Below, one piece after another: positions 12,312 to 64,000 of a DNA stretch of 64,000 nt. The translations under genes and the position numbers were made by a program. Position 1 is the stretch's first letter. Each line of letters starts with the position of its first letter. The DNA lies in the sequence record PP400787; one strand, written 5' to 3'. Under the pieces are notes generated by a model. The model worked only from the letters and a program-made list of their open reading frames with translations. It was not told where the DNA came from and did not search any database. The DNA is from Escherichia phage FL23.

Positions 12312-12785
12312 ATGTTATTGACTGGCAAATTATATAAAGAAGAAAAACAAAAATTTTATAATGCACAAAACGGTAAATGCTTAATTTGCCAACGAGAACT
12401 AAATCCTGATGTTCAAGCTAATCATCTTGATCATGACCATGAATTAAATGGACCAAAAGCAGGAAAGGTACGTGGATTGCTTTGTAATCTTTGCAATGCT
12501 GCAGAAGGTCAAATGAAGCACAAATTTAATCGTTCTGGCTTAAAGGGACAAGGTGTTGATTATCTTGAATGGTTAGAAAATTTACTTACTTACTTAAAAT
12601 CCGATTACACCCAAAATAATATTCACCCTAACTTTGTTGGAGATAAATCAAAGGAATTTTCTCGTTTAGGAAAAGAGGAAATGATGGCTGAGATGCTTCA
12701 AAGAGGATTTGAATATAATGAATCTGACACCAAAACACAGTTAATAGCTTCATTTAAGAAGCAGCTTAGAAAGAGTTTAAAATGA
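12312..12785 (+). CDS. 49: endonuclease VII (Holliday-junction resolvase)
   Basis: 157 aa; Cys-rich CLICQ ... HLDHDHE ... CNLCN zinc site; matches recalled T4 gp49. Confidence 0.85.
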   Translation: MLLTGKLYKEEKQKFYNAQNGKCLICQRELNPDVQANHLDHDHELNGPKAGKVRGLLCNLCNAAEGQMKHKFNRSGLKGQGVDYLEWLENLLTYLKSDYTQNNIHPNFVGDKSKEFSRLGKEEMMAEMLQRGFEYNESDTKTQLIASFKKQLRKSLK

Positions 12786-13319
12786 CAATTGAAAAAGAAA
12801 TTGAAGGATTGATTCATAAAACTAATAAAGACCTTTTAAACGAGAATGCTAATAAAGATTCTCGTGTTTTTCCAACTCAACGGGACCTTATGGCTGGTAT
12901 TGTGTCTAAACACATTGCCAAAAATATGGTCCCGTCTTTTATTATGAAAGCGCATGAAAGCGGAATTATTCATTTCCATGATATTGATTATTCCCCTGCT
13001 CTTCCATTTACTAATTGCTGTTTAGTAGATTTAAAAGGAATGCTTGAAAACGGATTTAAGCTAGGTAATGCACAGATTGAAACTCCTAAATCAATTGGCG
13101 TTGCTACTGCAATTATGGCACAAATTACTGCACAGGTTGCTTCTCACCAATATGGCGGAACTACATTTGCTAATGTCGATAAAGTACTTTCTCCTTATGT
13201 TAAACGCACCTATGCAAAACATATTGAGGATGCAGAAAAATGGCAAATCGCTGATGCGTTGAATTATGCTCAATCTAAAACAGAAAAAGACGTATACGAT
13301 GCATTCCAGGCGTATGAGT
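12782..13319 (+). CDS. nrdD: anaerobic ribonucleoside-triphosphate reductase, exon 1
   Basis: N-terminal NrdD sequence; reading frame ends just after QAYE; exon end placed after a U to satisfy group I rule and a 605-aa product. Confidence 0.75.
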
Positions 13320-13532
13320 TAATTTAATTCAGGCTCATGTAAAACCGGTCTAAACGGGGAACCTCTCTAGTAGACAATCCCGTGCTAAATGTTTTTAGAA
13401 AAACTAAATGCCTAACGACTAACCGTGATGAATGTAGCGGTGTAGAATAGAAGCTAATGCTATTCGAAACGGCCGGCATCGAAAGATGAAGATATAGTCT
13501 AATCTGCATGGCGACATGCAGCAGTCATCTTG

Positions 13533-13540
13533 TATAAATA
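13533..13540 (+). promoter_or_regulatory. T4 late promoter (TATAAATA) inside intron, upstream of the intron endonuclease gene
   Basis: Exact TATAAATA 30 nt upstream of the HEG ATG. Confidence 0.5.
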
Positions 13541-13569
13541 AGATTATCTTATGAATACGAGGTGAAACA

Positions 13570-14340
13570 ATGAAATGGATAAAAAGACGTTGTACTAAAA
13601 TAAAAGATAAAGACGCATTTACATACTTAGTTAAGTTTTCTAATGGCGACATTTATATCGGTTATAAAAAATTTAGAACAATTAAAAACAAGCCCACAAA
13701 CTGGAAAACTTACACAACGTCATCTAAGTATATAAATGAACGCTTAAAAACTGATACACCTACTAAATGGATAATTTTAAAAACATTTGATAGTTATAAA
13801 GATGCATTAAAACATGAAGAAGAGGTCATACGTAAATATTTTTATAGCAAAAAATGTTTAAATAAATCCATAGGCGGTAAAAAGTTTTATAAGCATCCGG
13901 ATACTGAAGAACATATTCAAAAATTAAGAGATGCTCATAAGGGTAAAGTGTTATCCGAATCTCATAAAAACAATATAAAATCTTCTGTAGCTGAATATTA
14001 TGCTAAAAACGGAAGATCTAAGGAACATGTGCAAAATAATATCAATAGTCGAAAAAGTAAAAAACAAATATCGATAAAGCTTAAAAATAAAACTTTTAGA
14101 AGTTTTAAAAAAGCAGCGGAATATTTAAATTGCACTGAAAGTGAAGTCGAAACTCATCCTCTTGTTTTGAGTATTAAGACTACTATTCATAAAGTTCCTG
14201 AATATGTGGTTGTTGACGGTATTAAGTATACGTCTTATATAGAAGCAGCTAAAGCGCTAAATTTTCATCCTAGCACTATAAAAGAACGTTGCATATCTAT
14301 GGACTATCCAAATTTTGTTGTTTCATATAAACGGGCATGA
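13570..14340 (+). CDS. intron-encoded GIY-YIG homing endonuclease (I-TevII-like)
   Basis: 256 aa ORF wholly inside the nrdD intron; YLVKFSNGDIYIGYK GIY-YIG-like module; size close to T4 I-TevII. Confidence 0.65.
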   Translation: MKWIKRRCTKIKDKDAFTYLVKFSNGDIYIGYKKFRTIKNKPTNWKTYTTSSKYINERLKTDTPTKWIILKTFDSYKDALKHEEEVIRKYFYSKKCLNKSIGGKKFYKHPDTEEHIQKLRDAHKGKVLSESHKNNIKSSVAEYYAKNGRSKEHVQNNINSRKSKKQISIKLKNKTFRSFKKAAEYLNCTESEVETHPLVLSIKTTIHKVPEYVVVDGIKYTSYIEAAKALNFHPSTIKERCISMDYPNFVVSYKRA

Positions 14341-14366
14341 ATTTGCGACTCATGCTGAATATAATG

Positions 14367-15646
14367 ATGAAGTAAATACACTTTTCAGCTCTAATGGGCA
14401 GACTCCTTTTGTAACAATTACATTTGGTACAGGAACTGACTGGACTGAACGAATGATTCAGAAAGCAATTCTGAAAAATCGTATTAAAGGTCTTGGTCGT
14501 GATGGGATAACTCCTATTTTCCCTAAGCTTGTTATGTTTGTTGAAGAAGGTGTTAATCTTTATAAAGACGATCCGAACTATGATATTAAGCAGCTTGCTC
14601 TAGAGTGCGCAAGCAAAAGAATGTATCCTGATATTATTTCAGCTAAGAACAATAAAGCTATCACTGGTTCATCTGTTCCTGTTTCTCCAATGGGTTGCCG
14701 TAGTTTCTTGAGCGTATGGAAAGATTCGACTGGTAATGAAATTCTTGATGGACGTAATAATCTTGGTGTTGTAACACTGAATCTTCCTCGTATCGCATTA
14801 GATTCTTATATTGGAACACAGTTCAATGAACAGAAATTTGTTGAATTGTTCAATGAACGAATGGATTTATGTTTTGAAGCTTTGATGTGTAGAATTAGTT
14901 CCTTAAAAGGAGTTAAAGCTACTGTTGCTCCTATTCTTTACCAAGAAGGTGCATTTGGGGTTCGTCTTAAACCTGATGACGATATAATTGAGTTATTTAA
15001 AAACGGTAGAAGTTCAGTGTCTTTAGGATACATTGGTATTCACGAATTGAATATTCTTGTCGGTCGTGATATTGGACGAGAAATTTTAACTAAAATGAAT
15101 GCTCATCTTAAACAGTGGACTGAAAGAACCGGATTTGCTTTTAGTTTATATTCGACTCCTGCTGAAAACCTTTGTTATCGCTTCTGTAAACTCGATACAG
15201 AAAAATATGGAAGCGTAAAAGATGTTACCGATAAAGGCTGGTACACTAACAGTTTCCATGTCTCAGTAGAAGAAAATATTACTCCGTTTGAAAAGATTTC
15301 TCGTGAAGCGCCATATCATTTCATTGCGACAGGTGGTCACATTTCTTATGTTGAACTTCCTGATATGAAAAATAACTTGAAAGGTCTTGAGGCCGTATGG
15401 GATTATGCTGCACAACATTTAGATTATTTTGGTGTTAATATGCCAGTGGATAAATGTTTTACATGCGGAAGTACCCATGAAATGACTCCTACTGAAAACG
15501 GATTTGTTTGTTCTATTTGTGGAGAAACTGATCCTAAAAAGATGAATACAATAAGAAGAACATGTGGCTATCTTGGAACTCCTAGCGTTGTTCCATGGAA
15601 TTTAGGTAAAATGAAAGAAATGGTAAAACGAGTAAAACATGCATAG
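14367..15646 (+). CDS. nrdD: anaerobic ribonucleoside-triphosphate reductase, exon 2
   Basis: Continues NrdD frame (EVNTLFSSNGQTPFVTITFGTG ...); C-terminal CxxC ... CxxC zinc ribbon; exon1+exon2 = 605 aa. Confidence 0.75.
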
Positions 15647-17605: not shown

Positions 17606-17905
17606 ACATTCTGTATATTACCATTCTAAGCTATCGTTCCCTTCTTATCATTCCCTAAAATAATTTTCACAAAGTTGTTTACAACGAGCTCAAACTGTGG
17701 TATTATTAACATATGAATTACCTTTGAGGAATTGATATGATTGATAAAGAGATTAAAATTGACCAGTATTATCGTGTTAACGGACATATCGTTATTGTTA
17801 CAGCAGTCGATGATCTAGATGTTCATTATACTGTGATTAAATGGAACAAACGTATGATTTGTGATCGTGCTGTATTTAGTTCAGTTGCTAAGGAAATTAA
17901 ACTCC

Positions 17906-18199
17906 ATGGGTAAAACGTATCGTCGTAAAGACTTAAAAGTGCGTGATTATGACTATTTTGGAAAGCGTAAAGCTCCTGATGGTGTAAGTCATAAAGATAT
18001 GGTTGAAAACATTTTTCGCTCAGATAAGTGGCGTAGAATGAAAGGCATTGATTCAGAAGTTAAAGATGAGCTAAATCGTCAATTACGCGGTGAAGTAAGA
18101 AAGTTGAAAAAATCAGTTTACATTGACGATGATTTTGATTATAATACTTCTCAACGAGTTGCTAAACGTAAATCAAACGAGTGTTATCGTTACAGCTGA
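17906..18199 (+). CDS. small highly basic protein (97 aa)
   Basis: K/R-rich throughout (GKTYRRKDLKVRDYDYFGKRK ...); start chosen at internal ATG. Confidence 0.35.
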   Translation: MGKTYRRKDLKVRDYDYFGKRKAPDGVSHKDMVENIFRSDKWRRMKGIDSEVKDELNRQLRGEVRKLKKSVYIDDDFDYNTSQRVAKRKSNECYRYS

Positions 18200-39019: not shown

Positions 39020-40048
39020 ATGTCATCAATACCTTGGATTGATAATGAGTTTGCGTATCGTGCATTAGCTCATTTACCTAAATTCACACAAGTAAATAAT
39101 AGTTCAACTTTTAAATTACGGTTTAGATGCCCTGTTTGTGGAGATTCAAAAACCGACCAGAATAAAGCTCGTGGATGGTATTATGGTGATAATAATGAAG
39201 GAAATATTCATTGTTATAACTGTAACTATCATGCACCAATCGGAATATATTTAAAGGAGTTTGAACCCGATTTATATCGTGAGTATATCTTTGAAATAAG
39301 AAAAGAAAAAGGTAAAAGTCGTCCAGTAGAAAAACCTAAAGAACTTCCTAAACAACCTGAGAAGAAAATAATTAAATCTCTTCCGTCATGCGTTAGATTA
39401 GATAAACTGGCGGAAGACCATCCAATTATAAAATATGTAAAAGCTCGCTGTATTCCAAAGGATAAATGGAAATATCTTTGGTTTACAACCGAATGGCCTA
39501 AATTAGTTAATAGCATAGCACCGGGAACATATAAAAAGGAAATACCTGAGCCTCGTCTTGTTATTCCAATTTATAATGCTAATGGAAAAGCTGAGTCTTT
39601 TCAAGGACGTGCATTAAAGAAAGATGCTCCTCAAAAATATATCACCATCAAAGCTTATCCTGAGGCAACAAAAATTTATGGAGTTGAACGAGTCAAAGAT
39701 GGTGATGTATATGTTCTAGAAGGACCTATAGATTCACTTTTTATTGAAAATGGTATAGCTATTACGGGTGGTCAATTAGACCTAGAAGTTGTTCCATTTA
39801 AAGATAGGCGTGTGTGGGTTTTAGATAATGAACCTCGTCATCCTGACACTATTAAGCGAATGACTAAATTAGTTGATGCAGGAGAAAGGGTTATGTTTTG
39901 GGATAAATCTCCCTGGAAATCAAAAGATGTTAATGATATGATTAGAAAGGAAGGTGCAACCCCTGAACAAATTATGGAATATATGAAAAATAATATTGCC
40001 CAAGGGTTGATGGCTAAAATGCGGCTATCTAAATATGCTAAGATTTAA
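39020..40048 (+). CDS. 61: DNA primase gp61
   Basis: 342 aa; N-terminal zinc ribbon CPVCGDS ... CYNCNYH; Toprim region; T4 gp61. Confidence 0.9.
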   Translation: MSSIPWIDNEFAYRALAHLPKFTQVNNSSTFKLRFRCPVCGDSKTDQNKARGWYYGDNNEGNIHCYNCNYHAPIGIYLKEFEPDLYREYIFEIRKEKGKSRPVEKPKELPKQPEKKIIKSLPSCVRLDKLAEDHPIIKYVKARCIPKDKWKYLWFTTEWPKLVNSIAPGTYKKEIPEPRLVIPIYNANGKAESFQGRALKKDAPQKYITIKAYPEATKIYGVERVKDGDVYVLEGPIDSLFIENGIAITGGQLDLEVVPFKDRRVWVLDNEPRHPDTIKRMTKLVDAGERVMFWDKSPWKSKDVNDMIRKEGATPEQIMEYMKNNIAQGLMAKMRLSKYAKI

Positions 40049-40245
40049 ATTAACCCAACCAAAGCAAATGCTAAATCTACGAATGTATCAAGAGTAATTA
40101 CTGGAATATTAACACCATGAGCAATAGCAATTGGTGATAAAACAAAATTCCAGAGTAAAATTCCTACCATAGCAGAAATAGTAAAAGCTATACGTTTCTT
40201 ATTACCTTTTATGGCATTAACAAGTGCCATTAATTTTTGTACCAT
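40045..40245 (-). CDS. small membrane protein, antisense orientation (66 aa)
   Basis: Only minus-strand ORF lying in an intergenic gap; GGAGGA 4 nt before ATG on minus strand; two hydrophobic segments. Confidence 0.4.
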   Translation of the reverse strand: MVQKLMALVNAIKGNKKRIAFTISAMVGILLWNFVLSPIAIAHGVNIPVITLDTFVDLAFALVGLI

Positions 40246-40316
40246 ATGTCCTCCTTATTGCTTTATATATTTATTGTATAATTAATCTACTAACCCATGA
40301 ATTGAAAGGAAAAATA

Positions 40317-40832
40317 ATGGCTTACTTTAATGAATGTTCACAACTGATTGAAGGCGCTGATAAAGCTCAAAATGAATACTGGGATATTCTCGGTGATGAA
40401 AAAGACCCGCTGCAGGTTATGCTTGATATGCAGAAATCTTTACAGGTTCGTTTAGCAAATGACCGCGAATACTGTTATCATCCAGATAAATTAGAAACTG
40501 CCGGTGATGTTGTTTCTTGGATGCGTGAACAAAAAGACTGTATTGATGATGAATTCCGCGAACTTCTGACTTCTCTTGGTGAAATGTCACGTGGTGAAAA
40601 AGATGCATCGGCAGTTTGGAAAAAATGGAAAGCACGTTATATTGAAGCGCAAGAAAAACGCATTGATGAAATGTCCCCAGAAGATCAGCTCGAAATTAAA
40701 TTTGAGCTTGTGGATATATTTCATTTCGTATTAAATATGTTTGCTGGCCTTGGAATGAATGCGGAAGAAATCTTTAAACTTTATTATTTGAAAAATAAAC
40801 ATAATTTTGAACGTCAAGATAATGGGTATTAA
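40317..40832 (+). CDS. 56: dCTP pyrophosphatase gp56
   Basis: 171 aa from MAYFNECSQLIEGADKAQNEYWDILGDEKDPLQVMLD; matches recalled T4 gp56. Confidence 0.9.
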   Translation: MAYFNECSQLIEGADKAQNEYWDILGDEKDPLQVMLDMQKSLQVRLANDREYCYHPDKLETAGDVVSWMREQKDCIDDEFRELLTSLGEMSRGEKDASAVWKKWKARYIEAQEKRIDEMSPEDQLEIKFELVDIFHFVLNMFAGLGMNAEEIFKLYYLKNKHNFERQDNGY

Positions 40833-41496
40833 ACAAAAATTTTATAGAACATATATCGTAAAAGTTAGGACGCCGAAAGGCGTCTTTTGGTACGCTGGGA
40901 AACATGAATCATTTATTGTAAATCCATATGATGATAAATATCCGGGGTCAGGCAAAATACTATGGAACATATATCGTAAGTATGGTTTTAATTATAAAAT
41001 ACGTTGGTCAAAATGCCATGGTTCTAGAGAAAAATCATATGAAGTTGAACGCGAGCTAATATCTGCATTAAAACGTAAACACCCAGATACTTGCATTAAT
41101 ATTTCTCCTGGTGGTCAGGGTGGAGAAGGAAGAAAATGGACTGAGCAACAACGATTAGAACATAAACTTAGATTAAACAATCCTGAAACAAAAACTCGGA
41201 TGAAGAATTCACAACGTATAGCCCAAAATAGAGCAGAACGAAAAGCTCGGCAATCTGAAGTAATGAAAAAGTTTTATTCGAATGGCGGAAATAAAAAGAT
41301 TTCAGAAGGAACTTCAAGGGCGCAAAGAAAAGCGCCGCATTGGAATGAACCGCTTAAAAGCGAAATACATGAGTTATGGGTTTCTTTAGGTAAACCAGCA
41401 ACAGGCCCGGTTGTAAAGGCGCTTAAAGGAAAATATGATGTAACAAGTTCAGCTCTTAAGAATTTAATTTACTTATTCAGAAAAGAAGATGTATAA
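40822..41496 (+). CDS. segF: GIY-YIG homing endonuclease, SegF-like
   Basis: 224 aa from internal ATG; YRTYIVKVRTPKGVFWYAGKH ... YPGSG; immediately downstream of gene 56 as T4 segF. Confidence 0.65.
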   Translation: MGIKQKFYRTYIVKVRTPKGVFWYAGKHESFIVNPYDDKYPGSGKILWNIYRKYGFNYKIRWSKCHGSREKSYEVERELISALKRKHPDTCINISPGGQGGEGRKWTEQQRLEHKLRLNNPETKTRMKNSQRIAQNRAERKARQSEVMKKFYSNGGNKKISEGTSRAQRKAPHWNEPLKSEIHELWVSLGKPATGPVVKALKGKYDVTSSALKNLIYLFRKEDV

Positions 41497-52279: not shown

Positions 52280-52322
52280 AAGGCCTTCGGGCCTTTAGCT
52301 TTATGATTACTGGAGTATAATA
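52280..52322 (+). promoter_or_regulatory. terminator hairpin (ggccTTCGggcc) fused to MotA-box-like middle promoter of gene 39
   Basis: aaaggccttcgggccttt-aGCTTTA-12nt-TATAAT. Confidence 0.5.
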
Positions 52323-52348
52323 TTCCCGAAACCAAACGAGGATAAGTG

Positions 52349-54166
52349 ATGATTAAGAATGAAATTAAAATTCTGAGCGATATTGAACATATCAAAAAGC
52401 GTAGCGGCATGTATATTGGCTCTTCTGCTAATGAAATGCATGAGCGCTTTCTGTTTGGTAAATGGGAAAGTGTTCAGTATGTACCTGGTCTTGTTAAGCT
52501 TATTGATGAAATTATCGATAACTCAGTAGATGAAGGTATTCGTACTAAGTTTAAATTCGCGAATAAAATTAATGTTACTATTAAAAACAATCAAGTAACA
52601 GTTGAAGATAACGGTCGTGGTATTCCACAGGCGATGGTTAAAACACCTACCGGTGAAGAAATTCCTGGTCCTGTTGCTGCATGGACTATTCCAAAAGCAG
52701 GTGGTAACTTCGGTGATGACAAAGAACGCGTCACTGGCGGTATGAACGGTGTTGGTTCTAGTTTAACTAACATTTTTTCTGTGATGTTTGTCGGTGAAAC
52801 TGGCGACGGTCAAAATAATATTGTAGTTCGTTGTTCAAACGGCATGGAAAATAAATCATGGGAAACTATTCCTGGAAAATGGAAAGGAACTCGCGTTACT
52901 TTCATTCCTGATTTTATGTCATTTGAAACTAATGAGCTATCTCAAGTTTATCTTGACATTACACTAGATCGTCTCCAGACACTTGCAGTAGTTTATCCTG
53001 ATATTCAATTTACCTTTAATGGTAAAAAGGTTCAGGGCAATTTTAAGAAGTATGCACGCCAGTATGATGAGCATGCTATCGTTCAAGAACAGGAAAATTG
53101 CTCTATTGCGGTTGGTCGTTCACCGGATGGTTTTCGTCAATTAACATACGTCAATAACATTCATACTAAGAATGGTGGTCATCACATTGACTGTGTTATG
53201 GATGATATTTGTGAAGACCTTATTCCACAAATCAAACGTAAATTTAAAATTGATGTAACTAAAGCACGCGTTAAAGAATGTTTGACTATCGTCATGTTTG
53301 TTCGTGATATGAAAAACATGCGATTTGATTCTCAAACTAAAGAGCGTTTGACTTCTCCATTTGGTGAAATTCGTAGTCATATTCAGCTTGATGCTAAAAA
53401 GATTTCACGTGCTATTTTAAATAATGAAGCAATTTTAATGCCAATTATTGAAGCTGCTTTGGCTCGTAAATTGGCGGCAGAAAAAGCAGCAGAAACTAAA
53501 GCAGCTAAAAAGGCTTCTAAAGCTAAGGTTCATAAACATATTAAAGCGAATCTTTGTGGTAAAGATGCTGACACTACTCTTTTCTTGACTGAGGGTGATT
53601 CCGCTATCGGATATCTTATTGATGTTCGTGATAAAGAACTTCATGGTGGTTATCCATTACGTGGTAAAGTTCTCAACAGTTGGGGTATGTCATATGCTGA
53701 TATGCTTAAAAACAAAGAACTGTTTGATATTTGCGCAATCACTGGATTGGTTCTTGGTGAAAAAGCTGAAAACTTAAATTATCATAATATTGCAATTATG
53801 ACCGATGCTGACCATGATGGTCTAGGAAGCATTTATCCTTCTCTGCTCGGATTTTTCAGTAATTGGCCAGAACTGTTTGAACAAGGAAGAATTCGCTTTG
53901 TCAAAACTCCTGTAATCATCGCTCAGGTCGGTAAAAAACAAGAATGGTTTTATACAGTCGCTGAATATGAGAGTGCTAAAGATGCTCTACCTAAACATAG
54001 CATCCGTTATATTAAGGGACTTGGCTCTTTGGAAAAATCTGAATATCGTGAGATGATTCAAAATCCAGTATATGATGTTGTTAAACTTCCTGAGAATTGG
54101 AAAGAGCTTTTTGAAATGCTCATGGGAGATAATGCTGACCTTCGTAAAGAATGGATGAGCCAGTAG
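52349..54166 (+). CDS. 39: type II DNA topoisomerase large (GyrB-like ATPase) subunit gp39, unsplit form
   Basis: 605 aa single ORF (GHKL ATPase plus Toprim); T4 splits this into genes 39 and 60, here no gene 60. Confidence 0.9.
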   Translation: MIKNEIKILSDIEHIKKRSGMYIGSSANEMHERFLFGKWESVQYVPGLVKLIDEIIDNSVDEGIRTKFKFANKINVTIKNNQVTVEDNGRGIPQAMVKTPTGEEIPGPVAAWTIPKAGGNFGDDKERVTGGMNGVGSSLTNIFSVMFVGETGDGQNNIVVRCSNGMENKSWETIPGKWKGTRVTFIPDFMSFETNELSQVYLDITLDRLQTLAVVYPDIQFTFNGKKVQGNFKKYARQYDEHAIVQEQENCSIAVGRSPDGFRQLTYVNNIHTKNGGHHIDCVMDDICEDLIPQIKRKFKIDVTKARVKECLTIVMFVRDMKNMRFDSQTKERLTSPFGEIRSHIQLDAKKISRAILNNEAILMPIIEAALARKLAAEKAAETKAAKKASKAKVHKHIKANLCGKDADTTLFLTEGDSAIGYLIDVRDKELHGGYPLRGKVLNSWGMSYADMLKNKELFDICAITGLVLGEKAENLNYHNIAIMTDADHDGLGSIYPSLLGFFSNWPELFEQGRIRFVKTPVIIAQVGKKQEWFYTVAEYESAKDALPKHSIRYIKGLGSLEKSEYREMIQNPVYDVVKLPENWKELFEMLMGDNADLRKEWMSQ

Positions 54167-54195
54167 TTTACTTTACCACAAGGATGTGGTATAAT
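54166..54195 (+). promoter_or_regulatory. T4-type early promoter
   Basis: GTTTAC-tttaccacaaggatgtgg-TATAAT. Confidence 0.55.
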
Positions 54196-54220
54196 TAATT
54201 GGGCAAATGAGGATATTGAA

Positions 54221-54424
54221 ATGAAATCATATAAAGTAAATTTAGAACTTTTTGATAAAGCAGTTCATCGAGAATATAGAATCATTCAACGCTTTTTCGA
54301 TATGGGAGAAGCCGAAGAGTTTAAAAACCGCTTTAAGGATATTAGAGATAAAATTCAATCCGACACTGCAACTAAAGATGAACTACTAGAAGTTGCTGAA
54401 GTTATTAAACGCAATATGAATTAA
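54221..54424 (+). CDS. hypothetical protein (67 aa; rIIA.1 position)
   Basis: ORF track. Confidence 0.45.
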
Positions 54425-54434
54425 TGAGGAAATT

Positions 54435-56612
54435 ATGATTATCACCACTGAAAAAGAAACAATTCTTGGTAATGGTTCTAAATCAAAGGCATTTAGCATC
54501 ACAGCATCTCCTAAAGTATTTAAAATTTTGTCATCTGATTTGTATACAAACAAGATTCGCGCAGTAGTCCGCGAATTGATTACCAACATGATTGATGCCC
54601 ATGCTCTCAATGGAAATCCTGAAAAATTTATCATTCAAGTTCCAGGACGATTAGATCCGCGATTTGTTTGTCGAGATTTTGGTCCAGGTATGAGCGATTT
54701 TGATATTCAAGGTGATGATAATTCTCCTGGGTTGTATAATTCATACTTCAGTTCATCTAAAGCTGAATCTAACGATTTCATTGGTGGATTTGGTTTAGGT
54801 TCTAAATCTCCATTTAGTTATACTGATACGTTTAGTATTACTTCATATCATAAAGGTGAAATTCGTGGTTATGTAGCTTATATGGATGGTGATGGTCCAC
54901 AGATTAAACCTACATTCGTAAAAGAAATGGGTCCAGATGATAAAACTGGTATTGAAATCGTAGTTCCAGTTGAAGAAAAAGACTTTAGAAACTTTGCTTA
55001 TGAAGTTTCTTATATCATGCGACCGTTCAAAGATTTGGCTATCATTAATGGTCTTGACCGCGAAATTGATTATTTTCCGGATTTTGATGATTATTATGGC
55101 GTAAATCCAGAAAGATACTGGCCAGATCGTGGTGGATTGTACGCTATCTATGGTGGTATTGTTTATCCTATTGACGGTGTTATTAGAGACCGTAACTGGT
55201 TAAGCATTCGCAATGAAGTGAATTATATTAAGTTTCCAATGGGTTCACTTGATATTGCTCCATCGCGTGAGGCTCTTTCGCTGGATGATCGTACTCGTAA
55301 AAATATTATTGAGCGTGTTAAAGAGCTTAGTGAGAAGGCATTCAATGAAGATGTAAAACGATTTAAAGAATCTACATCTCCTCGTCATACATACCGTGAA
55401 TTGATGAAGATGGGATATTCTGCTCGAGATTATATGATTAGCAATTCAGTCAAATTCACGACTAAAAATCTGTCATATAAAAAGATGCAGAGCATGTTTG
55501 AACCTGACAGTAAGTTATGCAATGCAGGGGTTGTGTATGAAGTAAATCTTGACCCTCGACTGAAACGCATTAAGCAAAGCCATGAAACTTCAGCCGTTGC
55601 GTCAAGCTATCGTCTGTTTGGTATTAATACGACAAAAATTAATATTGTTATTGATAATACTAAAAATCGTGTTAATATTGTCCGTGGATTAGCACGCGCG
55701 TTAGATGATAGTGAATTTAATAACACTTTGAATATTCATCACAATGAGCGGCTTCTGTTTATTAATCCGGAAGTAGAATCACAGATTGATTTACTCCCTG
55801 ATATTATGGCAATGTTTGAAAGTGATGAAGTTAACATTCATTATTTGTCAGAAATTGAAGCTTTAGTTAAAAGTTATATTCCAAAGGCAGTAAAAAGTAC
55901 AGCTCCTCGTCCTAAAGCTGCTACTGCATTTAAGTTTGAAATTAAAGACGGGCGCTGGGAAAAAGAGGAACTATTTACGCTCACATCAGAAGCAGATGAA
56001 ATTACTGGTTATGTAGCATACATGCATCGTTCTGATATTTTCTCTATGGATGGTACTACATCGCTTTGTCATCCATCTACGAGTATTTTGACTCGTATGG
56101 CTAATCTTATTGGCATTAATGAATTTTATGTTATTCGTCCGCTTTTGCAGAAAAAGGTAAAAGAACTCGGTCAGTGTCAATGTATTTTTGAAACTCTACG
56201 TGATTTATATGTAGATGCTTTTGATGCTGTAGATTATGATAAGTATGTAGGTTATTCAAGTTCAGCTAAACGATACATTGATAAAATTATCAAGTATCCT
56301 GAGTTAGATTTTATGATGAAGTACTTCAGTGTAGATGAAGTTTCTGAAGAATATACACGACTCGCTAATATGGTTAGTTCATTACAGGGTGTATATTTCA
56401 ACGGTGGAAAAGATACCATCGGTCATGACATCTGGACAGTAACTAATCTTTTTGATGTATTATCAAATAATGCTTCAAAAAACAGTGATAAAATGGTTGC
56501 TGAGTTTACCAAGAAATTCCGTATTGTTTCCGACTTCATCGGTTATCGCAACTCTTTAAGTGATGATGAAGTTTCCCAAATCGCTAAAACTATGAAGGCC
56601 CTTGCGGCCTAA
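54435..56612 (+). CDS. rIIA: rIIA protein
   Basis: 725 aa; N-terminal GHKL-like ATPase region ([15 protein letters not shown]); T4 rIIA length. Confidence 0.9.
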
Positions 56613-56623
56613 TAAGGAAAATT

Positions 56624-57562
56624 ATGTACAATATTAAATGCCTGACCAAAAACGAACAAGCTGAAATTGTCAAACTGTATTCAAGTGGTAATTACACCCA
56701 ACAGGAATTGGCTGATTGGCAAGGTGTATCGGTGGACACAATCCGTCGTGTTTTGAAAAATGCTGAAGAAGCTGAGCGCTCCAAAGTTACCATTAGCGGT
56801 GACATTACAGTTACAGTTAATAGCGATGCAGTTATTGCTCCAGTTGCTAAATCTGATATTGTTTGGAATGCATCTAAAAAATTCATTTCAATTACCGTTG
56901 ACGGCGTAACTTATAACGCAACTCCTAATACTCATTCAAACTTCCAAGAAATTCTTAATCTGCTTGTTGCAGATAAATTGGAAGAAGCTGCGCAAAAAAT
57001 TAACGTTCGTCGCGCTGTTGAAAAATATATTTCCGGTGATGTTCGAATTGAAGGTGGAAGCTTGTTCTATCAAAACATTGAATTACGGTCTGGTTTAGTT
57101 GATCGTATTCTCGATTCGATGGAAAAAGGTGAAAACTTTGAATTTTATTTTCCGTTCCTGGAAAATCTGCTGGAAAACCCAAGCCAAAAAGCAGTATCTC
57201 GACTCTTTGATTTCTTGGTAGCAAATGATATTGAAATTACAGAAGATGGTTACTTCTATGCTTGGAAAGTAGTTCGCAGCAATTACTTTGATTGTCACTC
57301 AAATACCTTTGATAACAGCCCTGGTAAAGTAGTTAAAATGCCACGTACTCGCGTGAATGACGATGATACGCAAACTTGTTCTCGTGGTCTGCATGTGTGT
57401 TCTAAATCTTATATTCGTCACTTTGGCAGTTCAACCAGCCGAGTTGTAAAAGTTAAAGTACATCCTCGCGATGTAGTATCAATTCCGATTGATTATAACG
57501 ACGCTAAAATGCGTACCTGCCAATACGAAGTAGTTGAAGACGTTACTGAACAATTTAAATAA
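56624..57562 (+). CDS. rIIB: rIIB protein
   Basis: 312 aa; immediately downstream of rIIA; T4 rIIB length. Confidence 0.85.
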   Translation: MYNIKCLTKNEQAEIVKLYSSGNYTQQELADWQGVSVDTIRRVLKNAEEAERSKVTISGDITVTVNSDAVIAPVAKSDIVWNASKKFISITVDGVTYNATPNTHSNFQEILNLLVADKLEEAAQKINVRRAVEKYISGDVRIEGGSLFYQNIELRSGLVDRILDSMEKGENFEFYFPFLENLLENPSQKAVSRLFDFLVANDIEITEDGYFYAWKVVRSNYFDCHSNTFDNSPGKVVKMPRTRVNDDDTQTCSRGLHVCSKSYIRHFGSSTSRVVKVKVHPRDVVSIPIDYNDAKMRTCQYEVVEDVTEQFK

Positions 57563-57582
57563 GGGCTTCGGCCCTTAACTAA
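57563..57582 (+). terminator. rho-independent terminator (gggcTTCGgccc)
   Basis: aagggcttcggccctt. Confidence 0.55.
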
Positions 57583-57590
57583 GGAAAATT

Positions 57591-57785
57591 ATGTTAGGTT
57601 ATCAAGCACGAGTAAAAGAAGAATACGATCAATTAATGCTCAAAATTAATGCACTGAGCAAATTTTTAGAAAGTGAAAAGTTTTCAACGGTTAATGCAGT
57701 TGAGCAAGAACTGTTGCTTTCGCAGTTCATCTCAATGAAATCTTACGCGGATTGTTTAGAGAAAAGAATTGCACAGTTCAAATAA
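57591..57785 (+). CDS. hypothetical protein (64 aa)
   Basis: ORF track; flanked by two terminator hairpins. Confidence 0.4.
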   Translation: MLGYQARVKEEYDQLMLKINALSKFLESEKFSTVNAVEQELLLSQFISMKSYADCLEKRIAQFK

Positions 57786-57789
57786 AATA

Positions 57790-57815
57790 AGGGGCTTCGG
57801 CCCTTTTGTTTTAAG
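57790..57815 (+). terminator. rho-independent terminator (ggggcTTCGgccc + T-run)
   Basis: aaggggcttcggcccttttgtttt. Confidence 0.6.
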
Positions 57816-57823
57816 GAAAAATT

Positions 57824-58153
57824 ATGATTTATTGTATGAATATCGGTGATTCCGACATAAAAGAGATTAAACTGCACGGAAATCATCACGCTAATATTGT
57901 GTACTGCAATAAATTTGAGTTTGGTCATGAAAAACTTGGGGTTCTTTATTGCAATGATGTTATAATCATGGATAAAAAGGAACTCGATGAACTCGACCGT
58001 GAGTCTTTAGATGAAAATGACAGAATTTATTATGGTACTCTTAAAGTATATAACGCTTATCTTAGCGGTAAAAAGGAAAGTCTAAATGCAGAAAACGAAT
58101 CCGGGTTTACAGAGACTATTTCAGATTCCGACATTTACCCTATCGAACAATGA
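57824..58153 (+). CDS. hypothetical protein (109 aa)
   Basis: ORF track. Confidence 0.4.
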   Translation: MIYCMNIGDSDIKEIKLHGNHHANIVYCNKFEFGHEKLGVLYCNDVIIMDKKELDELDRESLDENDRIYYGTLKVYNAYLSGKKESLNAENESGFTETISDSDIYPIEQ

Positions 58154-58643
58154 TTTGACTAGTGAAATGAAGGTCAAAATTGCTGATACAGCAAGATACT
58201 CTTTAAAACAAAACCCAAACCAGGATAAAGCAGAAGTCATTGAAAGATGTCGTATCGCTGTGTACGCAGAATTTTTTGTAGCAGATTGGCTGAGCGGGTA
58301 TGTTAACAAAGGCCAAGAGGATGTTAATGACCCATATACATATGCGTGGGATGTATTGGCGCATCCAAGATATTGCGGGCTTCGTGTAGAAGTCAAAACA
58401 CACCAAACTGACTCACGTTGGATTTCTGTAACAACAGGATGCAGCGGAGAGTATCCATACGGTTCTGGAATAAATCTAGGGCCCATTCTGAATCATCAGG
58501 TCGCTGACTGTATAATTATATTCAACACTAAAGAAATTCATCCAGGTGTCATCCAGTACACTCCGAAGTTCATCGGTGATAGAGAAGACCTTCGTAAGGT
58601 TGTAAGAAAAAGCAACTACAACGGATGGTATCTTTCCATTTAA
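58086..58643 (+). CDS. denB: endonuclease IV (DenB)-like
   Basis: 185 aa, same length and position (between rIIB and ndd) as T4 DenB; overlaps previous ORF by 68 nt so start is uncertain. Confidence 0.55.
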   Translation: MQKTNPGLQRLFQIPTFTLSNNDLTSEMKVKIADTARYSLKQNPNQDKAEVIERCRIAVYAEFFVADWLSGYVNKGQEDVNDPYTYAWDVLAHPRYCGLRVEVKTHQTDSRWISVTTGCSGEYPYGSGINLGPILNHQVADCIIIFNTKEIHPGVIQYTPKFIGDREDLRKVVRKSNYNGWYLSI

Positions 58644-58723
58644 AAATTTTCACAAAACGGTTTACATACCACAAGGACTGTGGTACTATACAACTATCAA
58701 CTGATACGGATTTGGAGAACAAA
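58641..58723 (+). repeat. early promoter plus conserved leader cassette, copy 3
   Basis: GTTTACataccacaaggactgtggTACTATacaactatcaactgatacggatttggagaacaaa. Confidence 0.6.
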
Positions 58724-58930
58724 ATGTTTACTACAGCTGAATTAAAACGAGCAAAAGCTAAGAAAGGGCAAGGAAAATATAAAGCTGAATTAGTTAAAGA
58801 ACTTCAGTTTGCTGAGGCTGAATTGAATTCAATGATTATTCAAAATGCTCCAGAAGCTGAAATCGCTCTTAAACGTATTGCGAATAAGTGTCTTCGTGAT
58901 GCAATCGTCGATCTTTTAGCGGATTATTGA
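58724..58930 (+). CDS. hypothetical protein (68 aa)
   Basis: ATG after cassette SD. Confidence 0.45.
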   Translation: MFTTAELKRAKAKKGQGKYKAELVKELQFAEAELNSMIIQNAPEAEIALKRIANKCLRDAIVDLLADY

Positions 58931-59147
58931 GTAAAATGAAAATCGTTGAGATTGAACTATGAGTTCACTATGGTGGTGTTTTGTTTGGTTAATTAGTATT
59001 CCAGTAATTTGTTTAACATTTACTTTTGTAGTGAGGTTATTATGAAAATTTTGAATTCTGTACTTATTGCTTGCGCGTGGTGGGTTGCACAGGTTTCAGC
59101 GGTAGTAGTTGGTATTCACATTTATTACGAATATTTTTAAAAAAGTT

Positions 59148-59205
59148 GTTTACAAGACTGTTCCTCTGTGGTACTATACAACTATCAACTACGGAGGAAC
59201 AGAAA
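59148..59205 (+). repeat. early promoter/leader cassette, variant class (identical to 5458-5515)
   Basis: 58-nt block identical to copy at 5458. Confidence 0.6.
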
Positions 59206-59319
59206 ATGAAAAAGATTGTTAAAGCTATATGGAATGTAGTTATAATATTAGTAGTTTTGAGTATATTCCCAATCGTTTTAATGATTGATGTATTAAACGC
59301 TTACTTTGGATTTATGTGA
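59206..59319 (+). CDS. membrane micro-protein (37 aa)
   Basis: MKKIVKAIWNVVIILVVLSIFPIVLMIDVLNAYFGFM. Confidence 0.4.
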   Translation: MKKIVKAIWNVVIILVVLSIFPIVLMIDVLNAYFGFM

Positions 59320-59326
59320 GGAAAAT

Positions 59327-59524
59327 ATGAAGCGTAAACGCAGTGCTTTTACATTTATTGAATGGTTTTTCGATAATATTTTTCCAGCTTTATTCATTTT
59401 CATGCTGATTTTCGCCTTGGGTTCAGTTGTAGTTGGAATCTATTTGATGGCAGTTGTCGGAATGGACATTCATCAAAATGGCTTAAAATCTGTAGTTGAA
59501 ACAATTTGGAATGGTGTAAAATGA
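59327..59524 (+). CDS. small membrane protein (65 aa)
   Basis: Hydrophobic core FPALFIFMLIFALGSVVVGIYLMAVVG. Confidence 0.4.
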   Translation: MKRKRSAFTFIEWFFDNIFPALFIFMLIFALGSVVVGIYLMAVVGMDIHQNGLKSVVETIWNGVK

Positions 59525-59639
59525 TGAATTTGCTGAGTGGTTGGTTTTATATTCTTATGTTTTACATTGGCGCAAATTTTCCATATTGGATGGGATGGTC
59601 AACAACTGCATTTGGATTTTATACTCCTTGAGGTGAATT

Positions 59640-59855
59640 ATGAAAATCTTTAAAGATGTAAAAGTTGGTGAAATTTTTTGTTTAGATAATGGTGATCAGT
59701 TAATTCGTATTTCGCCCCTTAAAAGCACTAGCGAGAAAATGACAGTTAACGCTACTTTAGCAAATAACAGCAATGAACGTTTCTGTATTGAAAATGATAC
59801 TGAAACTTATACTGTAGAAGAGTTCTGGGAATTAATCGTCGCAGTCGACGATTAA
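59640..59855 (+). CDS. hypothetical protein (71 aa)
   Basis: ORF track. Confidence 0.4.
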   Translation: MKIFKDVKVGEIFCLDNGDQLIRISPLKSTSEKMTVNATLANNSNERFCIENDTETYTVEEFWELIVAVDD

Positions 59856-59915
59856 TTTATCGGCCGTATGTATTCATGCGGCCTTGGAGTAGAAAATAAT
59901 TTAGAGGAAATTAAT

Positions 59916-60374
59916 ATGAAATACATGACTGTTACTGATCTGAATAATGCAGGCGCTACTGTTATTGGTACAATCAAGGGTGGTGAGTGGTTTTTGGGAA
60001 TTCCACATAAAGATATTTTATCTAAACCTGGATTTTACTTTTTGGTGAGTAAATTAGATGGTCGTCCATTTAGTAATCCGTGTGTGTCTGCACGATTTTA
60101 TGTAGGTAATCAGCGTTCTAAGCAAGGATTTAGTGCGGTTCTAAGTCATATTCGTCAACGTCGGTCTCAGCTTGCGCGTACTATTGCAAATAACAATGTT
60201 CCATACACAGTATTTTATCTGCCTGCTTCTAAGATGAAACCTCTGACGACGGGATTTGGAAAAGGACAGTTAGCTTTAGCGTTTACTCGTAATCATCATT
60301 CTGAGTATCAAACACTTGAAGAAATGAACCGTATGTTGGCTGATAACTTTAAATTTGTTTTGCAGGCATATTAA
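59916..60374 (+). CDS. ndd: nucleoid disruption protein Ndd
   Basis: About 152 aa from [18 protein letters not shown]; position and size as T4 Ndd. Confidence 0.7.
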
Positions 60375-60454
60375 TGAGTAATTTCCATAACGAACATGTG
60401 ATGCAGTTCTATCGTAATAATCTTAAAACTAAAGGCGTCTTCGGACGCCAGTGA
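60374..60454 (+). CDS. stp: Stp peptide (activator of host PrrC/EcoprrI anticodon nuclease system)
   Basis: 26-aa [29 protein letters not shown] matches recalled T4 Stp; overlaps ndd stop. Confidence 0.8.
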
Positions 60455-60461
60455 GGAAAAT

Positions 60462-60620
60462 ATGAATATCGCAAAATTATTAGGAGTTATTTCATTTATT
60501 TGTTGGATAGTAGCATGTGTTTTAACTATCTGTATTGATGCCAGCAGCGTGTTTTCACAAGCTTTAGCTCAGGGTATGTGTGCATATTTAACATTTGTGT
60601 TGTTATCTACTAATGATTAA
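60462..60620 (+). CDS. ac: Ac (acridine sensitivity) membrane peptide
   Basis: 52-aa hydrophobic ORF after stp; T4 ac position. Confidence 0.6.
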   Translation: MNIAKLLGVISFICWIVACVLTICIDASSVFSQALAQGMCAYLTFVLLSTND

Positions 60621-60753
60621 GAAAATCTTGGGCTACTCAGTAGCCCTTGCTGCTTTATTGGTAGCACTATATTATGGAGTAATGTTCGGATTAATTCAAG
60701 TCGTGCTTTTCATTTCTGATGTTATTATGGCACTACATTCACTAGTATGGTAA
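60613..60753 (+). CDS. membrane micro-protein (46 aa; 52.1 position)
   Basis: Hydrophobic; coordinates derived by codon arithmetic. Confidence 0.35.
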   Translation: MIKKILGYSVALAALLVALYYGVMFGLIQVVLFISDVIMALHSLVW

Positions 60754-60757
60754 ATTT

Positions 60758-62086
60758 ATGCAACTGAATAATCGCGATTTAAAAAGTATCATTGATAATG
60801 AAGCATTGGCTTATGCTATGTACACGGTTGAAAATCGTGCTATCCCAAATATGATTGACGGATTTAAGCCAGTCCAACGATTTGTTATTGCTCGAGCTCT
60901 TGATTTGGCACGAGGAAATAAAGATAAGTTTCACAAACTTGCTTCTATTGCAGGTGGTGTAGCGGACCTTGGATATCATCATGGTGAAAACTCTGCGCAA
61001 GACGCAGGTGCTTTGATGGCTAACACTTGGAATAATAACTTTCCTCTGTTAGATGGTCAAGGAAACTTCGGTTCTCGTACCGTTCAAAAAGCAGCAGCAA
61101 GTCGTTATATTTTTGCTCGTGTAAGTAAAAATTTCTATAACGTATATAAAGATACTGAATATGCTCCGGTACATCAAGATAAAGAACACATTCCGCCTGC
61201 TTTCTATTTGCCTATTATTCCTACTGTTCTTCTTAATGGCGTTTCCGGTATTGCAACTGGTTATGCAACTTACATTCTTCCTCATAGTGTTTCTTCTGTC
61301 AAGAAAGCTGTACTACAAGCTCTTCAAGGAAAGAAAGTAACTAAACCGAAGGTAGAATTCCCAGAATTTCGTGGTGAAGTCGTTGAAATTGACGGTCAAT
61401 ATGAAATTCGTGGAACATACAAGTTTACTTCACGAACTCAAATGAATATCACTGAGATTCCATATAAGTATGATCGTGAAACTTATGTGAGTAAAATCTT
61501 AGACCCACTTGAAGATAAAGGCTTCATTACATGGGATGATGCTTGCGGTGAGCACGGTTTTGGATTCAAAGTTAAATTCCGCAAAGAATACTCTTTGAGC
61601 GATAACGAAGAAGAACGCCATGCAAAAATCATGAAAGACTTCGGGTTGATTGAGCGTCGTTCACAGAATATTACTGTTATTAATGAGAAAGGAAAGCTGC
61701 AAGTTTACGACAACGTAGTTGATTTAATTAAAGACTTCGTTGAAGTTCGTAAAACTTATGTCCAAAAACGAATTGATAACAAAATCAAAGAAACTGAATC
61801 AGCATTTCGTTTAGCCTTTGCCAAGGCGCATTTCATTAAGAAAGTAATTTCAGGTGAAATTGTTGTACAAGGTAAAACTCGCAAAGAACTGACCGAAGAA
61901 CTTTCTAAAATTGAGATGTATTCTTCTTATGTTGATAAACTAGTCGGAATGAATATTTTTCATATGACTTCTGATGAAGCAAAGAAACTTGCTGAAGAAG
62001 CTAAAGCTAAGAAAGAAGAAAACGAATATTGGAAAACTACTGATGTAGTTACCGAATACACTAAAGATTTAGAGGAAATCAAATGA
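60758..62086 (+). CDS. 52: type II DNA topoisomerase medium subunit gp52 (GyrA-like)
   Basis: 442 aa; T4 gp52 length. Confidence 0.9.
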   Translation: MQLNNRDLKSIIDNEALAYAMYTVENRAIPNMIDGFKPVQRFVIARALDLARGNKDKFHKLASIAGGVADLGYHHGENSAQDAGALMANTWNNNFPLLDGQGNFGSRTVQKAAASRYIFARVSKNFYNVYKDTEYAPVHQDKEHIPPAFYLPIIPTVLLNGVSGIATGYATYILPHSVSSVKKAVLQALQGKKVTKPKVEFPEFRGEVVEIDGQYEIRGTYKFTSRTQMNITEIPYKYDRETYVSKILDPLEDKGFITWDDACGEHGFGFKVKFRKEYSLSDNEEERHAKIMKDFGLIERRSQNITVINEKGKLQVYDNVVDLIKDFVEVRKTYVQKRIDNKIKETESAFRLAFAKAHFIKKVISGEIVVQGKTRKELTEELSKIEMYSSYVDKLVGMNIFHMTSDEAKKLAEEAKAKKEENEYWKTTDVVTEYTKDLEEIK

Positions 62087-62235
62087 GTCCATTCATTGGT
62101 ATTACAAGCGCGGCATTAGTATCTGGTAGCATTTTACTGGCGGGTTTAGGTGTTGTTCCAGCCGTAGCAGGAGGTCTTCTTGCGTTTGGAATTCAACGTG
62201 TTATCATGACAGTTATCACAGTCATGCAGTAATTT

Positions 62236-62265
62236 TAGGGAGAGCCTCGGCTCTCCCTTTTTTAT
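62236..62265 (+). terminator. rho-independent terminator
   Basis: gggagagccTCGGctctccc followed by TTTTTTATTTT. Confidence 0.65.
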
Positions 62266-62274
62266 TTTAAAATT

Positions 62275-62361
62275 TTTTTTTCACAAAACGGTTTACAACC
62301 AAAGCATACTGTGGTACTATACAACTATCAACTACTGATACAGAATTACGGAGATTAGAAA
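62275..62361 (+). repeat. early promoter plus leader cassette, copy upstream of motA
   Basis: tttttttcacaaaacgGTTTACaaccaaagcatactgtggTACTATacaactatcaact ... GGAG. Confidence 0.6.
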
Positions 62362-62997
62362 ATGTCTAAAGTAACTTACATCATCAAAGCTTCTAACGAT
62401 GTTCTGAATGAAAAAACTGCTGCGATTTTAATTACCATTGCTAAGAAAGATTTCATTACAGCTGCAGAAGTTCGTGAGGTGCATCCAGATTTAGGTAACG
62501 CAGTAGTTAATAGTAATATTGGGGTATTGATTAAAAAAGGCCTGGTGGAGAAATCTGGTGATGGATTAATCATTACAGGTGAAGCTCAGGATATCATTTC
62601 AAATGCAGCAACTTTATATGCGCAGGAAAACGCTCCAGAACTGCTGAAAAAACGAGCAACTCGTAAAGCTCGCGAAATTACTTCTGATATGGAAGAAGAT
62701 AAAGACTTCATGTTAAAACTTTTAGATGAAAATGGATTTGTTCTTAAAAAGGTTGAAACTTATCGTAGTAACTATCTCGCTATTTTAGAAAAACGCACTC
62801 ACGGAATTCGCAATTTTGAAATTAACAACAATGGAAATATGCGAATTTTTGGATACAAAATGATGGAACATCATATTCAGAAATTTACTGATATCGGAAT
62901 GTCATGCAAAATCGCTAAAAATGGTAATGTGTATCTTGACATTAAACGCTCGGCAGAAAACATTGAAGCAGTAATCACCGTAGCATCTGAACTGTGA
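62362..62997 (+). CDS. motA: middle-transcription activator MotA
   Basis: 211 aa; MSKVTYIIKASNDVLNEKTAAILITIAKKDFITAAEVREVHPDLG matches recalled T4 MotA. Confidence 0.9.
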   Translation: MSKVTYIIKASNDVLNEKTAAILITIAKKDFITAAEVREVHPDLGNAVVNSNIGVLIKKGLVEKSGDGLIITGEAQDIISNAATLYAQENAPELLKKRATRKAREITSDMEEDKDFMLKLLDENGFVLKKVETYRSNYLAILEKRTHGIRNFEINNNGNMRIFGYKMMEHHIQKFTDIGMSCKIAKNGNVYLDIKRSAENIEAVITVASEL

Positions 62998-63007
62998 GGA
63001 ATAAATA

Positions 63008-63337
63008 ATGAACAAGTTAGAAATTGTTAATGAACTTCGTCGTTGTGCAGAACCCACTCAAGAGGGGTGGGACATCTGGTATCATGGAGCTTATCTTGGA
63101 ACTATCGTAAAGATTAAGACTGGTAAATACATGATTATTCGTGAAAGTAAAGATGCTCCAGTAGGTATTCGCAATAATTTTATGGCAGCGATAAGTTCAT
63201 TTACGGATGCAGCTTACGAAATTTACCTTGCCGATTATAAAGAATTCCAGGAATCTCAACCGGTTATTCGTTCAATTGGTGTTAACAAAGCTCAGCAGAA
63301 AACTTTGTGGCAACGTATTAAAGGATGGTTTAAATGA
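63008..63337 (+). CDS. hypothetical protein (109 aa)
   Basis: ORF track. Confidence 0.4.
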
Positions 63338-63795
63338 ACCCATTTATTAATCGTTTAAAAATGCTGAATGTTCCTTTATCTCGTGAAACTCCAGAAAGTC
63401 TTGTTGAAAAATTTAAAGCGCATGGTTATAAATGCGCAGAAGAAGATATTCTGAAAGAAGTTCCTGAAATCTGTTGGCAGACTGCGTATTGGGATGAAAA
63501 CCAAAAGTATCAACGACGAATTGTCTGTGCAGCCAACCGTTTTAAATTAAAAGATGGACGAACTCTTATTATTCCAGGTGCTCGTCATTATTCTAAAGAT
63601 ATGGCAGAAGTTTTAGATGTAGTTAAACCCCAATTAGTTACTCAGCAAGTTTGTGATGATGACCAAGGGTTTATTGACCAATATAGTAATTATTGGACAC
63701 GTGAAGAAGCAATGATTATTGCAACTTATGCTGGACAAGTACGTATTGAACGTGGTGGTAGTGAAAAAGAACTTTACTCTGAGGACCTTTACTAA
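63334..63795 (+). CDS. hypothetical protein (153 aa)
   Basis: ORF track; ATGA overlap. Confidence 0.4.
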
Positions 63796-64000
63796 TGAAT
63801 ATTAAAAAGTTTCAAATTGATGGAATTATGAATCAAATTCAGGCGCTGGAATATGCCAATAAAATGATGTCAACTAAATGGGGAATTTATGCCAATGAAC
63901 CAGCATTTCAGTTCTGTAATATGGAATTCACTAAAAAGCTCGTAGGAAAAGATTATGTATGTCCATTTAGTTCTCCAGCAAATGGAATGCTAAAACCTGC
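63795..64000 (+). CDS. hypothetical protein, N-terminal fragment (runs off window)
   Basis: ATG overlapping previous stop; open to window end. Confidence 0.3.
   Translation, partial: MNIKKFQIDGIMNQIQALEYANKMMSTKWGIYANEPAFQFCNMEFTKKLVGKDYVCPFSSPANGMLKP

Follow-up and report, generated by a model that had tools for sequence, protein, structure and literature searches.

Two questions are raised by the interval between the DNA primase gene (gene 61) and the dCTPase gene (gene 56) of this T4-like phage: what is the small open reading frame (ORF) that lies there on the opposite strand, and does it have anything to do with the absence of the DNA adenine methyltransferase gene, dam? An earlier note on this DNA had linked the two, suggesting that the ORF took the place that dam holds in T4. 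In this study, we examined the window, namely the whole 64,000-nucleotide stretch analyzed here, with the help of the record of the Tequatrovirus FL44 (PP400790.1), which is 100% identical to the window and supplied both the annotation and the 170,664-bp genome that was searched. The window is the reverse complement of the FL44 record and spans the ends of that linear record, with window positions 1-52279 corresponding to record positions 52279-1 and window positions ~52300-64000 to record positions 170645-158944. Our comparisons make it likely that the ORF is the FL44 orthologue of T4 dam.1, a conserved late inner-membrane protein of T-even phages with its own promoter of the gp55 type, and that the absence of dam is a separate matter. 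The features on which this reading draws are collected in Table 1.

Table 1. Features of the 61-56 interval and its neighbors in window coordinates, followed by the late-type boxes of the lineages compared.
Feature	Position	Strand	Basis or remark
Gene 61 (DNA primase), convergent neighbor	39020..40048	+	FL44 annotation XAO17694.1; T4 gp61 in matching place
66-aa ORF, ATG start	40045..40245	-	Annotated XAO17693.1 in FL44; orthologue of T4 dam.1, phrog_2024
Terminator-like hairpin, 8 bp, with T-run	40211..40240	+	Inside 5' end of 66-aa ORF
Shine-Dalgarno GGAGGA	40249..40254	-	3 nt before ATG of 66-aa ORF
Empty site of dam cassette	40256..40275	none	Pairwise alignment with T4
MotA box ATTGCTTTA of gene 56 middle promoter	40257..40265	+	Aligns with T4 P(M)16.53 mot-box annotated in X01416
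T4-type late-promoter box AATAAATA (gp55-dependent type)	40268..40275	-	22 nt upstream of ATG
-10 TATAAT of gene 56 middle promoter	40277..40282	+	Aligns with T4 P(M)16.53 -10 annotated in X01416
Gene 56 (dCTPase), opposite-side neighbor	40317..40832	+	FL44 annotation, T4 comparison
Box AATAAATA			FL44, T6, L005, JK42, JS98, KpV477
Box GATAAATA			T4, T2
Box CATAAATA			VR26, TH40
Box TATAAATA (canonical)			Kosakonia 305

The 61-56 interval and the dam cassette

The basic description of the locus given by the earlier note, a 66-aa minus-strand ORF that has GGAGGA as its ribosome-binding site and runs towards the 3' end of gene 61, in a gap of ~270 bp that lacks dam, was confirmed. The interval measures 268 bp (40049-40316), and therefore there is no room for dam. 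The stop codons of the two convergent genes overlap (gene 61, 40046-40048; ORF, 40045-40047), and 4 nt are common to both genes. The accompanying statement that this is the only intergenic minus-strand ORF in 64 kb was nearly right. The window has 75 minus-strand ORFs that reach 55 aa or more, and just three of them lack plus-strand ORF cover: the 66-aa ORF and two others at 13324-13652, in an apparent intron of nrdD. Shuffling of the 272-nt interval yielded a closed ORF of at least 60 aa in 2.4% of cases; the ORF alone is therefore weak evidence, being marginally unusual, and its reality rests on conservation.

The two other uncovered minus-strand ORFs encode 61 and 77 aa, are located between two pieces of the nrdD coding sequence and lie upstream of a homing-endonuclease gene; a canonical TATAAATA occurs at 13534 (+), ~29 nt before the ATG of the endonuclease. 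The FL44 annotation contains one further opposite-strand CDS within the window, a PHANOTATE call at 13324-13509, which corresponds to one of these two ORFs and is probably spurious. No intron model was found in 12500-15000 with Rfam at the gathering threshold. On the far side of the 61-56 interval, a segF-like GIY-YIG homing endonuclease gene (40807-41496, +) overlaps gene 56 at its end, an arrangement that T4 shares, and this gene is missing from the equivalent place in some relatives (T6, JK42, JS98).

That T4 has dam between genes 61 and 56, as the earlier note had it, was borne out by the T4 record (AF158101), in which the order is gene 61, a 310-bp unannotated gap, dam, gene 56, segF and soc. 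The T4T record annotates this 310-bp gap as dam.1, a 201-bp CDS on the opposite strand with a 4-nt overlap with the gene 61 stop. In pairwise alignment, 40200-40274 matched the T4 flank on the dam.1 side, and 40257-40330 matched the T4 flank on the gene 56 side, from the MotA box of that gene's middle promoter onward; T4 carries ~860 bp that FL44 does not, comprising dam and its upstream region. In the T-even genomes that have it, the ~860-bp cassette sits between the putative late promoter of the ORF and the gene 56 MotA box. No cassette is present at the locus in FL44, T6, JK42 (a Mosigvirus) or two metagenomic lineages; T4 has dam there, and T2 has dam together with a 181-aa ORF. The 61-56 interval is a defined cassette site, which may be empty or occupied by dam or by dam plus extra ORFs. 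A T4-type Dam at no less than 90% identity was found in 182 phage records, compared with ~500 Tequatrovirus records having the ORF at >90%, which places the cassette in ~36% of Tequatrovirus records and leaves ~64% without T4-type Dam. The absence of dam is an ordinary and common cassette polymorphism.

A dam gene elsewhere in the genome had also been considered in the earlier note. A tblastn search of the whole 170,664-bp FL44 genome with T4 Dam revealed no homologue (best E = 1.0), a blastn search matched only the shared flank at the gene 56 promoter, and no methyltransferase is listed in the FL44 annotation. This lack of dam from both the interval and the entire FL44 genome is what would be expected if the ORF were the leftover of a gene replacement that removed dam, as had been proposed. 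Such an origin is almost certainly wrong, as the ORF and dam are neighbors in T4, T4T and T2. Since T4 carries both, the ORF neither occupies the place of dam nor represents a replacement remnant, and the notion that it is held "instead" of dam fails for T2 and many other phages as well. In addition, the more distant genera Mosigvirus, Kanagawavirus, Jiaodavirus and Dhakavirus carry the ORF without an adjoining dam, the ORF is intact and under selection, and the difference from T4 is a clean ~860-bp presence or absence outside the ORF. Under our preferred reading, the ORF and the missing dam are separate matters, with the cassette simply missing from FL44 and most of its relatives.

Conservation and selection on the protein

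The ORF translated from the T4 sequence is 94% identical to the 66-aa protein over the full length. The gene is named dam.1 in T4T (locus T4Tp032, ADJ39749.1) and is already annotated as hypothetical in hundreds of T4-like genomes, while it is omitted from AF158101 and NC_000866. The protein matched phrog_2024 with E = 5.4e-31 (residues 2-66 against profile positions 1-65 of 65). By tblastn, the ORF was found in 692 phage records, ~500 of them at >90% identity and ~190 at around 50%, the latter being Mosigvirus and Gaprivervirus. Remote members were detected with the family HMM in Kosakonia phage 305 (Kanagawavirus), Klebsiella phage KpV477 (Jiaodavirus) and JS98 (Dhakavirus), as was a tandem paralogue in VR26; all members match phrog_2024, at E values of 1e-15 to 1e-31. 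The family spans at least six genera of Tevenvirinae; the ORF was absent from the regions examined in Krischvirus, Aeromonas phage 25 and Klebsiella phage RCIP0002.

The position of the ORF was compared in T4, T2, T6, JK42, the two metagenomic lineages, Kosakonia 305, KpV477, JS98 and VR26. In all of those examined, it lies on the opposite strand to gene 61 and abuts or overlaps the gene 61 3' end, the exception being VR26 gp031. The Gaprivervirus VR26 has two tandem paralogues (L011, 1295-1701), of which gp032 adjoins gene 61 and gp031 lies beyond it, and the second paralogue is without a promoter box of its own. JS98 has the gp032-type copy only, which is unannotated in its record (L026, 2526-2726).

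The pattern of substitution bears the signature of a translated gene and points away from conserved non-coding DNA. Estimates of dN/dS (Nei-Gojobori) were mostly 0.1-0.3 within and between lineages, with a maximum of 0.55 for the closest Gaprivervirus pair. Between genera, synonymous sites are saturated and ~50% of residues are kept. Differences fell on codon positions in the order 3>1>>2, for example 42/29/12 between FL44 and JK42. The motifs AIKGNKK and LWNF..P.A..G...P and an acidic residue in LDTFVD persist at ~25-50% identity, the frame is open at 63-66 codons across genera, and a GGAGG or GGAGA ribosome-binding core was present in all lineages examined.

These data also bear on the possibility that the ORF is untranslated and that the interval is kept for cis elements, such as a gene 61 terminator, the dam/56 promoters or oriA-adjacent sequence. 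A plus-strand terminator-like hairpin is indeed found within the ORF, a middle promoter adjoins it, the chance rate in shuffles is that given above, and the T4 reference annotations leave the ORF out. We nevertheless consider this explanation very improbable, because the frame stays open despite synonymous saturation, dN/dS is low, second codon positions change least, and protein motifs and a strong ribosome-binding site persist. The hairpin at 40211-40240 is a possible terminator for gene 61 transcripts; it was found in the Tequatrovirus lineage only and is absent beyond it, and on account of this restriction we rejected it as the main constraint on the interval. Rfam matches over 39800-40500 were at chance level only.

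Two members of the family deserve separate mention. In the T6 record (L013, AP018814), the start codon at 1301-1303 is ATT, not ATG, and the annotated CDS begins at Met6; this may be an error in the sequence, rare use of ATT as a start codon or an allele that has been weakened. In addition, all differences between the Logan assembly protein P0036 and the family can be explained by C-to-T codon changes (A>V, T>I, S>F/L, P>L, H>Y, R>C), and P0036 looks like the product of assembling reads that had been bisulfite-converted or deaminated, and not like a natural variant.

A conserved hypothetical gene and a common dam polymorphism are of low value as discoveries. What the comparison adds is that AF158101 and NC_000866 omit a gene clearly under purifying selection, and proteomics, knock-down screens and expression atlases that use these reference records will therefore have missed the ORF. 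Digestion of the protein with trypsin would yield LMALVNAIK as the sole convenient peptide, the remainder being a single hydrophobic peptide of 48 residues, and this explains how routine proteomics would overlook the product.

The late-type promoter box and predicted opposing transcription

In 11 of the 12 lineages, a sequence of the form (T/A/G/C)ATAAATA ends 16-23 nt before the ATG and is followed by GGAGG; the exception is L008, in which there is no clear box. The sequence flanking the box is otherwise unalignable between genera. The first base is off consensus, being A in FL44 and G in T4 and T2. In a compilation of 50 T4 late promoters, 32 match the consensus perfectly and A takes the place of T at -13 in nine (Geiduschek and Kassavetis, PMC2988020), and T(-13) is poorly conserved among T4-like phages (Nolan et al., PMC1524935).

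Over both strands of the window, ATAAATA was observed nine times against 40.4 +/- 6.1 expected from shuffles, corresponding to an approximately four-fold depletion, as would be expected if stray late promoters were selected against in the early region. The nine include the known late promoter of soc, at 41493. Several others sit inside genes on the minus strand (37449, 38647 and 51708) and could start antisense late RNAs.

The orientation of the ORF points in the same direction as its box. In T4, early and middle transcripts are all counterclockwise, and late ones are of either polarity (PMC2988020). A clockwise gene at this place is therefore expected to be late, and the sequence agrees. The earlier note had offered a late-expressed or an antisense-regulated function for the ORF; of these, the late reading is favored by the conserved upstream box and by the opposing direction of early and middle transcription. 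We infer from the box and its spacing that the ORF is transcribed late in vivo, from a start near 40262 that would give a leader of ~17 nt. On the + strand of the T4 record NC_000866, the GATAAATA box is at 17,709-17,716 and the ORF at 17,738-17,938, and the predicted start would be near 17,722, 6 nt past the box. A T4 dRNA-seq preprint (bioRxiv 10.1101/2024.04.04.588121) gives 150 phage start sites, of which 22 are antisense. In the literature on dam.1, T4 ribosome profiling and T4 start-site maps, we found no statement on the ORF.

Taken together, the proposed course of expression is that a late promoter of the gp55 type, AATAAATA, would give rise to a short leader carrying GGAGGA and hence to an inner-membrane protein of 63-66 aa. 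Late in infection, the ORF would be transcribed clockwise, opposite to the early region as a whole, and the resulting RNA would converge into the 3' end of the primase gene. No minus-strand terminator was predicted downstream of the ORF in 39300-40045, and the late transcript may therefore run antisense into gene 61.

This arrangement allows for the alternative that an antisense RNA is the main product, either because the late transcript lowers primase mRNA or because early read-through from gene 61 silences the ORF. The genes converge and have 4 nt in common, and the lack of a predicted minus-strand terminator would permit such transcripts. However, the purifying selection acts on the amino-acid sequence, so the protein matters; no Rfam family matches; and in KpV477 the two stop codons are separated by a GC-rich hairpin that would halt read-through there. 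We therefore regard antisense RNA as an improbable main product. Protein and antisense roles are not mutually exclusive, and an effect of the transcript on gene 61 mRNA, in addition to the protein, is likewise judged to be unlikely. A type I toxin-antitoxin pair, in which a small hydrophobic peptide is matched by an overlapping antisense RNA, was considered as well and set aside, as the locus has no dedicated antisense RNA gene. The KpV477 hairpin itself (AAGGGGC...GCCCCT) occupies about 2523-2541 of L027, past the minus-strand ORF stop at 2545, and resembles a bidirectional terminator; the T-even group is without a hairpin of this type because the stop codons overlap there. Apart from the PHANOTATE call in the nrdD region, the ORF is the sole annotated clockwise gene in the 64-kb window, which otherwise holds counterclockwise early-region genes; owing to this lone position, it offers a clean system in which to examine whether late transcription extends antisense into a replication gene.

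On the other side of the ORF, the plus-strand middle promoter of gene 56 has an 11-bp spacer that contains the minus-strand late box, and the two promoters overlap back to back. A more far-reaching model would take the late promoter to be nested in the oriA-priming middle promoter, the firing of the two to be mutually exclusive, and late transcription to be linked in this way to the shut-off of the oriA/gene 56 promoter, with the ORF as an unrecognized late-envelope component. We rate this model as speculative and give it little credence. If it were true, a component of the late envelope program (lysis timing, lysis inhibition or membrane protection) would be missing from the T4 reference annotation.

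The predicted membrane protein and its place among known systems

The protein has a GRAVY of 1.25. The two hydrophobic segments noticed earlier were found again at residues 19-42 and 47-66, each with a mean Kyte-Doolittle value of ~2.0. A basic (KGNKKR), amphipathic N-terminus is followed by a long hydrophobic helix, a conserved HG..P turn, the acidic LDTFVD and a short C-terminal helix. The AlphaFold2 model built from an 11-sequence alignment (mean pLDDT 78) has three helices, at residues 2-14, 16-42 and 52-63, with residues 43-51 forming a loop. The product is probably a small late-expressed inner-membrane protein, which would be inserted with its N-terminus in the cytoplasm according to the positive-inside rule. 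The C-terminal hydrophobic stretch is short and contains conserved acidic residues, and its 20 residues may either re-enter the membrane to form a hairpin or be periplasmic; in the remote members it extends only 12-14 residues past the conserved acidic position, which favors a single pass. The conserved turn and acidic motif suggest that the protein may interact with a specific partner, either at the membrane or in the periplasm.

No relative outside the family emerged from Pfam, from NCBIfam or from exhaustive HMM searching of 1.84 billion representatives. Foldseek of the AlphaFold2 model against viral structures returned the family itself and two 63-aa viral proteins, one of them from Enterobacter phage CIP9; their scores (probability 0.95-0.98, E 0.19 and 0.47) are uninformative for a small helical protein. 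With no relative of known function, any functional guess is without homology support. A late role in the cell envelope, in lysis timing, lysis inhibition or membrane integrity, may be put forward tentatively, and we hold it to be possible but doubtful.

One specific version of such a role is that the product is a holin. The protein is small, hydrophobic and probably late, and members from phage OE5505 are named "Holin" in UniRef and BFVD. FL44, however, has a regular T4-type holin gene t (XAO17932.1), the protein has no Pfam holin match even at E<=10 and no NCBIfam match, and its C-terminus is hydrophobic (...AFALVGLI) and without a charged tail. The ORF is moreover distant from the lysozyme gene, not beside it, and all other sources call the product hypothetical. 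We consider a holin quite improbable, and the "Holin" label of the UniProt member was rejected on account of the phage's own holin t, the missing charged tail and the absence of a holin family match.

The ORF corresponds most closely to T4 dam.1 (phrog_2024): both lie in the same place and orientation, overlap the gene 61 stop by 4 nt and have a matching ribosome-binding site with a late-type box upstream. They differ in that the promoter-side neighbor of T4 dam.1 is dam and its box is GATAAATA, whereas in FL44 the neighbor is gene 56 and the box is AATAAATA, which, unlike that of T4 dam.1, falls within the spacer of the middle promoter of gene 56. The T4 Dam methyltransferase cassette, by comparison, occupies the adjacent site in T4, T2 and other members of Tequatrovirus, is not carried by FL44 and is unrelated to the ORF.

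The ORF is arranged like T4 late genes such as soc, 1.3 kb away, with an 8-bp box that ends ~22 nt ahead of the ATG and is followed by a short leader rich in A and T and then by a strong ribosome-binding site. Its box differs from T4 late promoters in having A, not T, as the first base, which is the commonest documented variant; and the ORF is a lone clockwise gene surrounded by a long early region that is read counterclockwise. Finally, Imm, Sp (spackle), RI and holin T are similar in kind only, as small proteins that are targeted to the inner membrane or the periplasm and affect the envelope during infection. None of them has sequence or fold similarity to the ORF, and Imm and Sp are early proteins encoded on the other strand.
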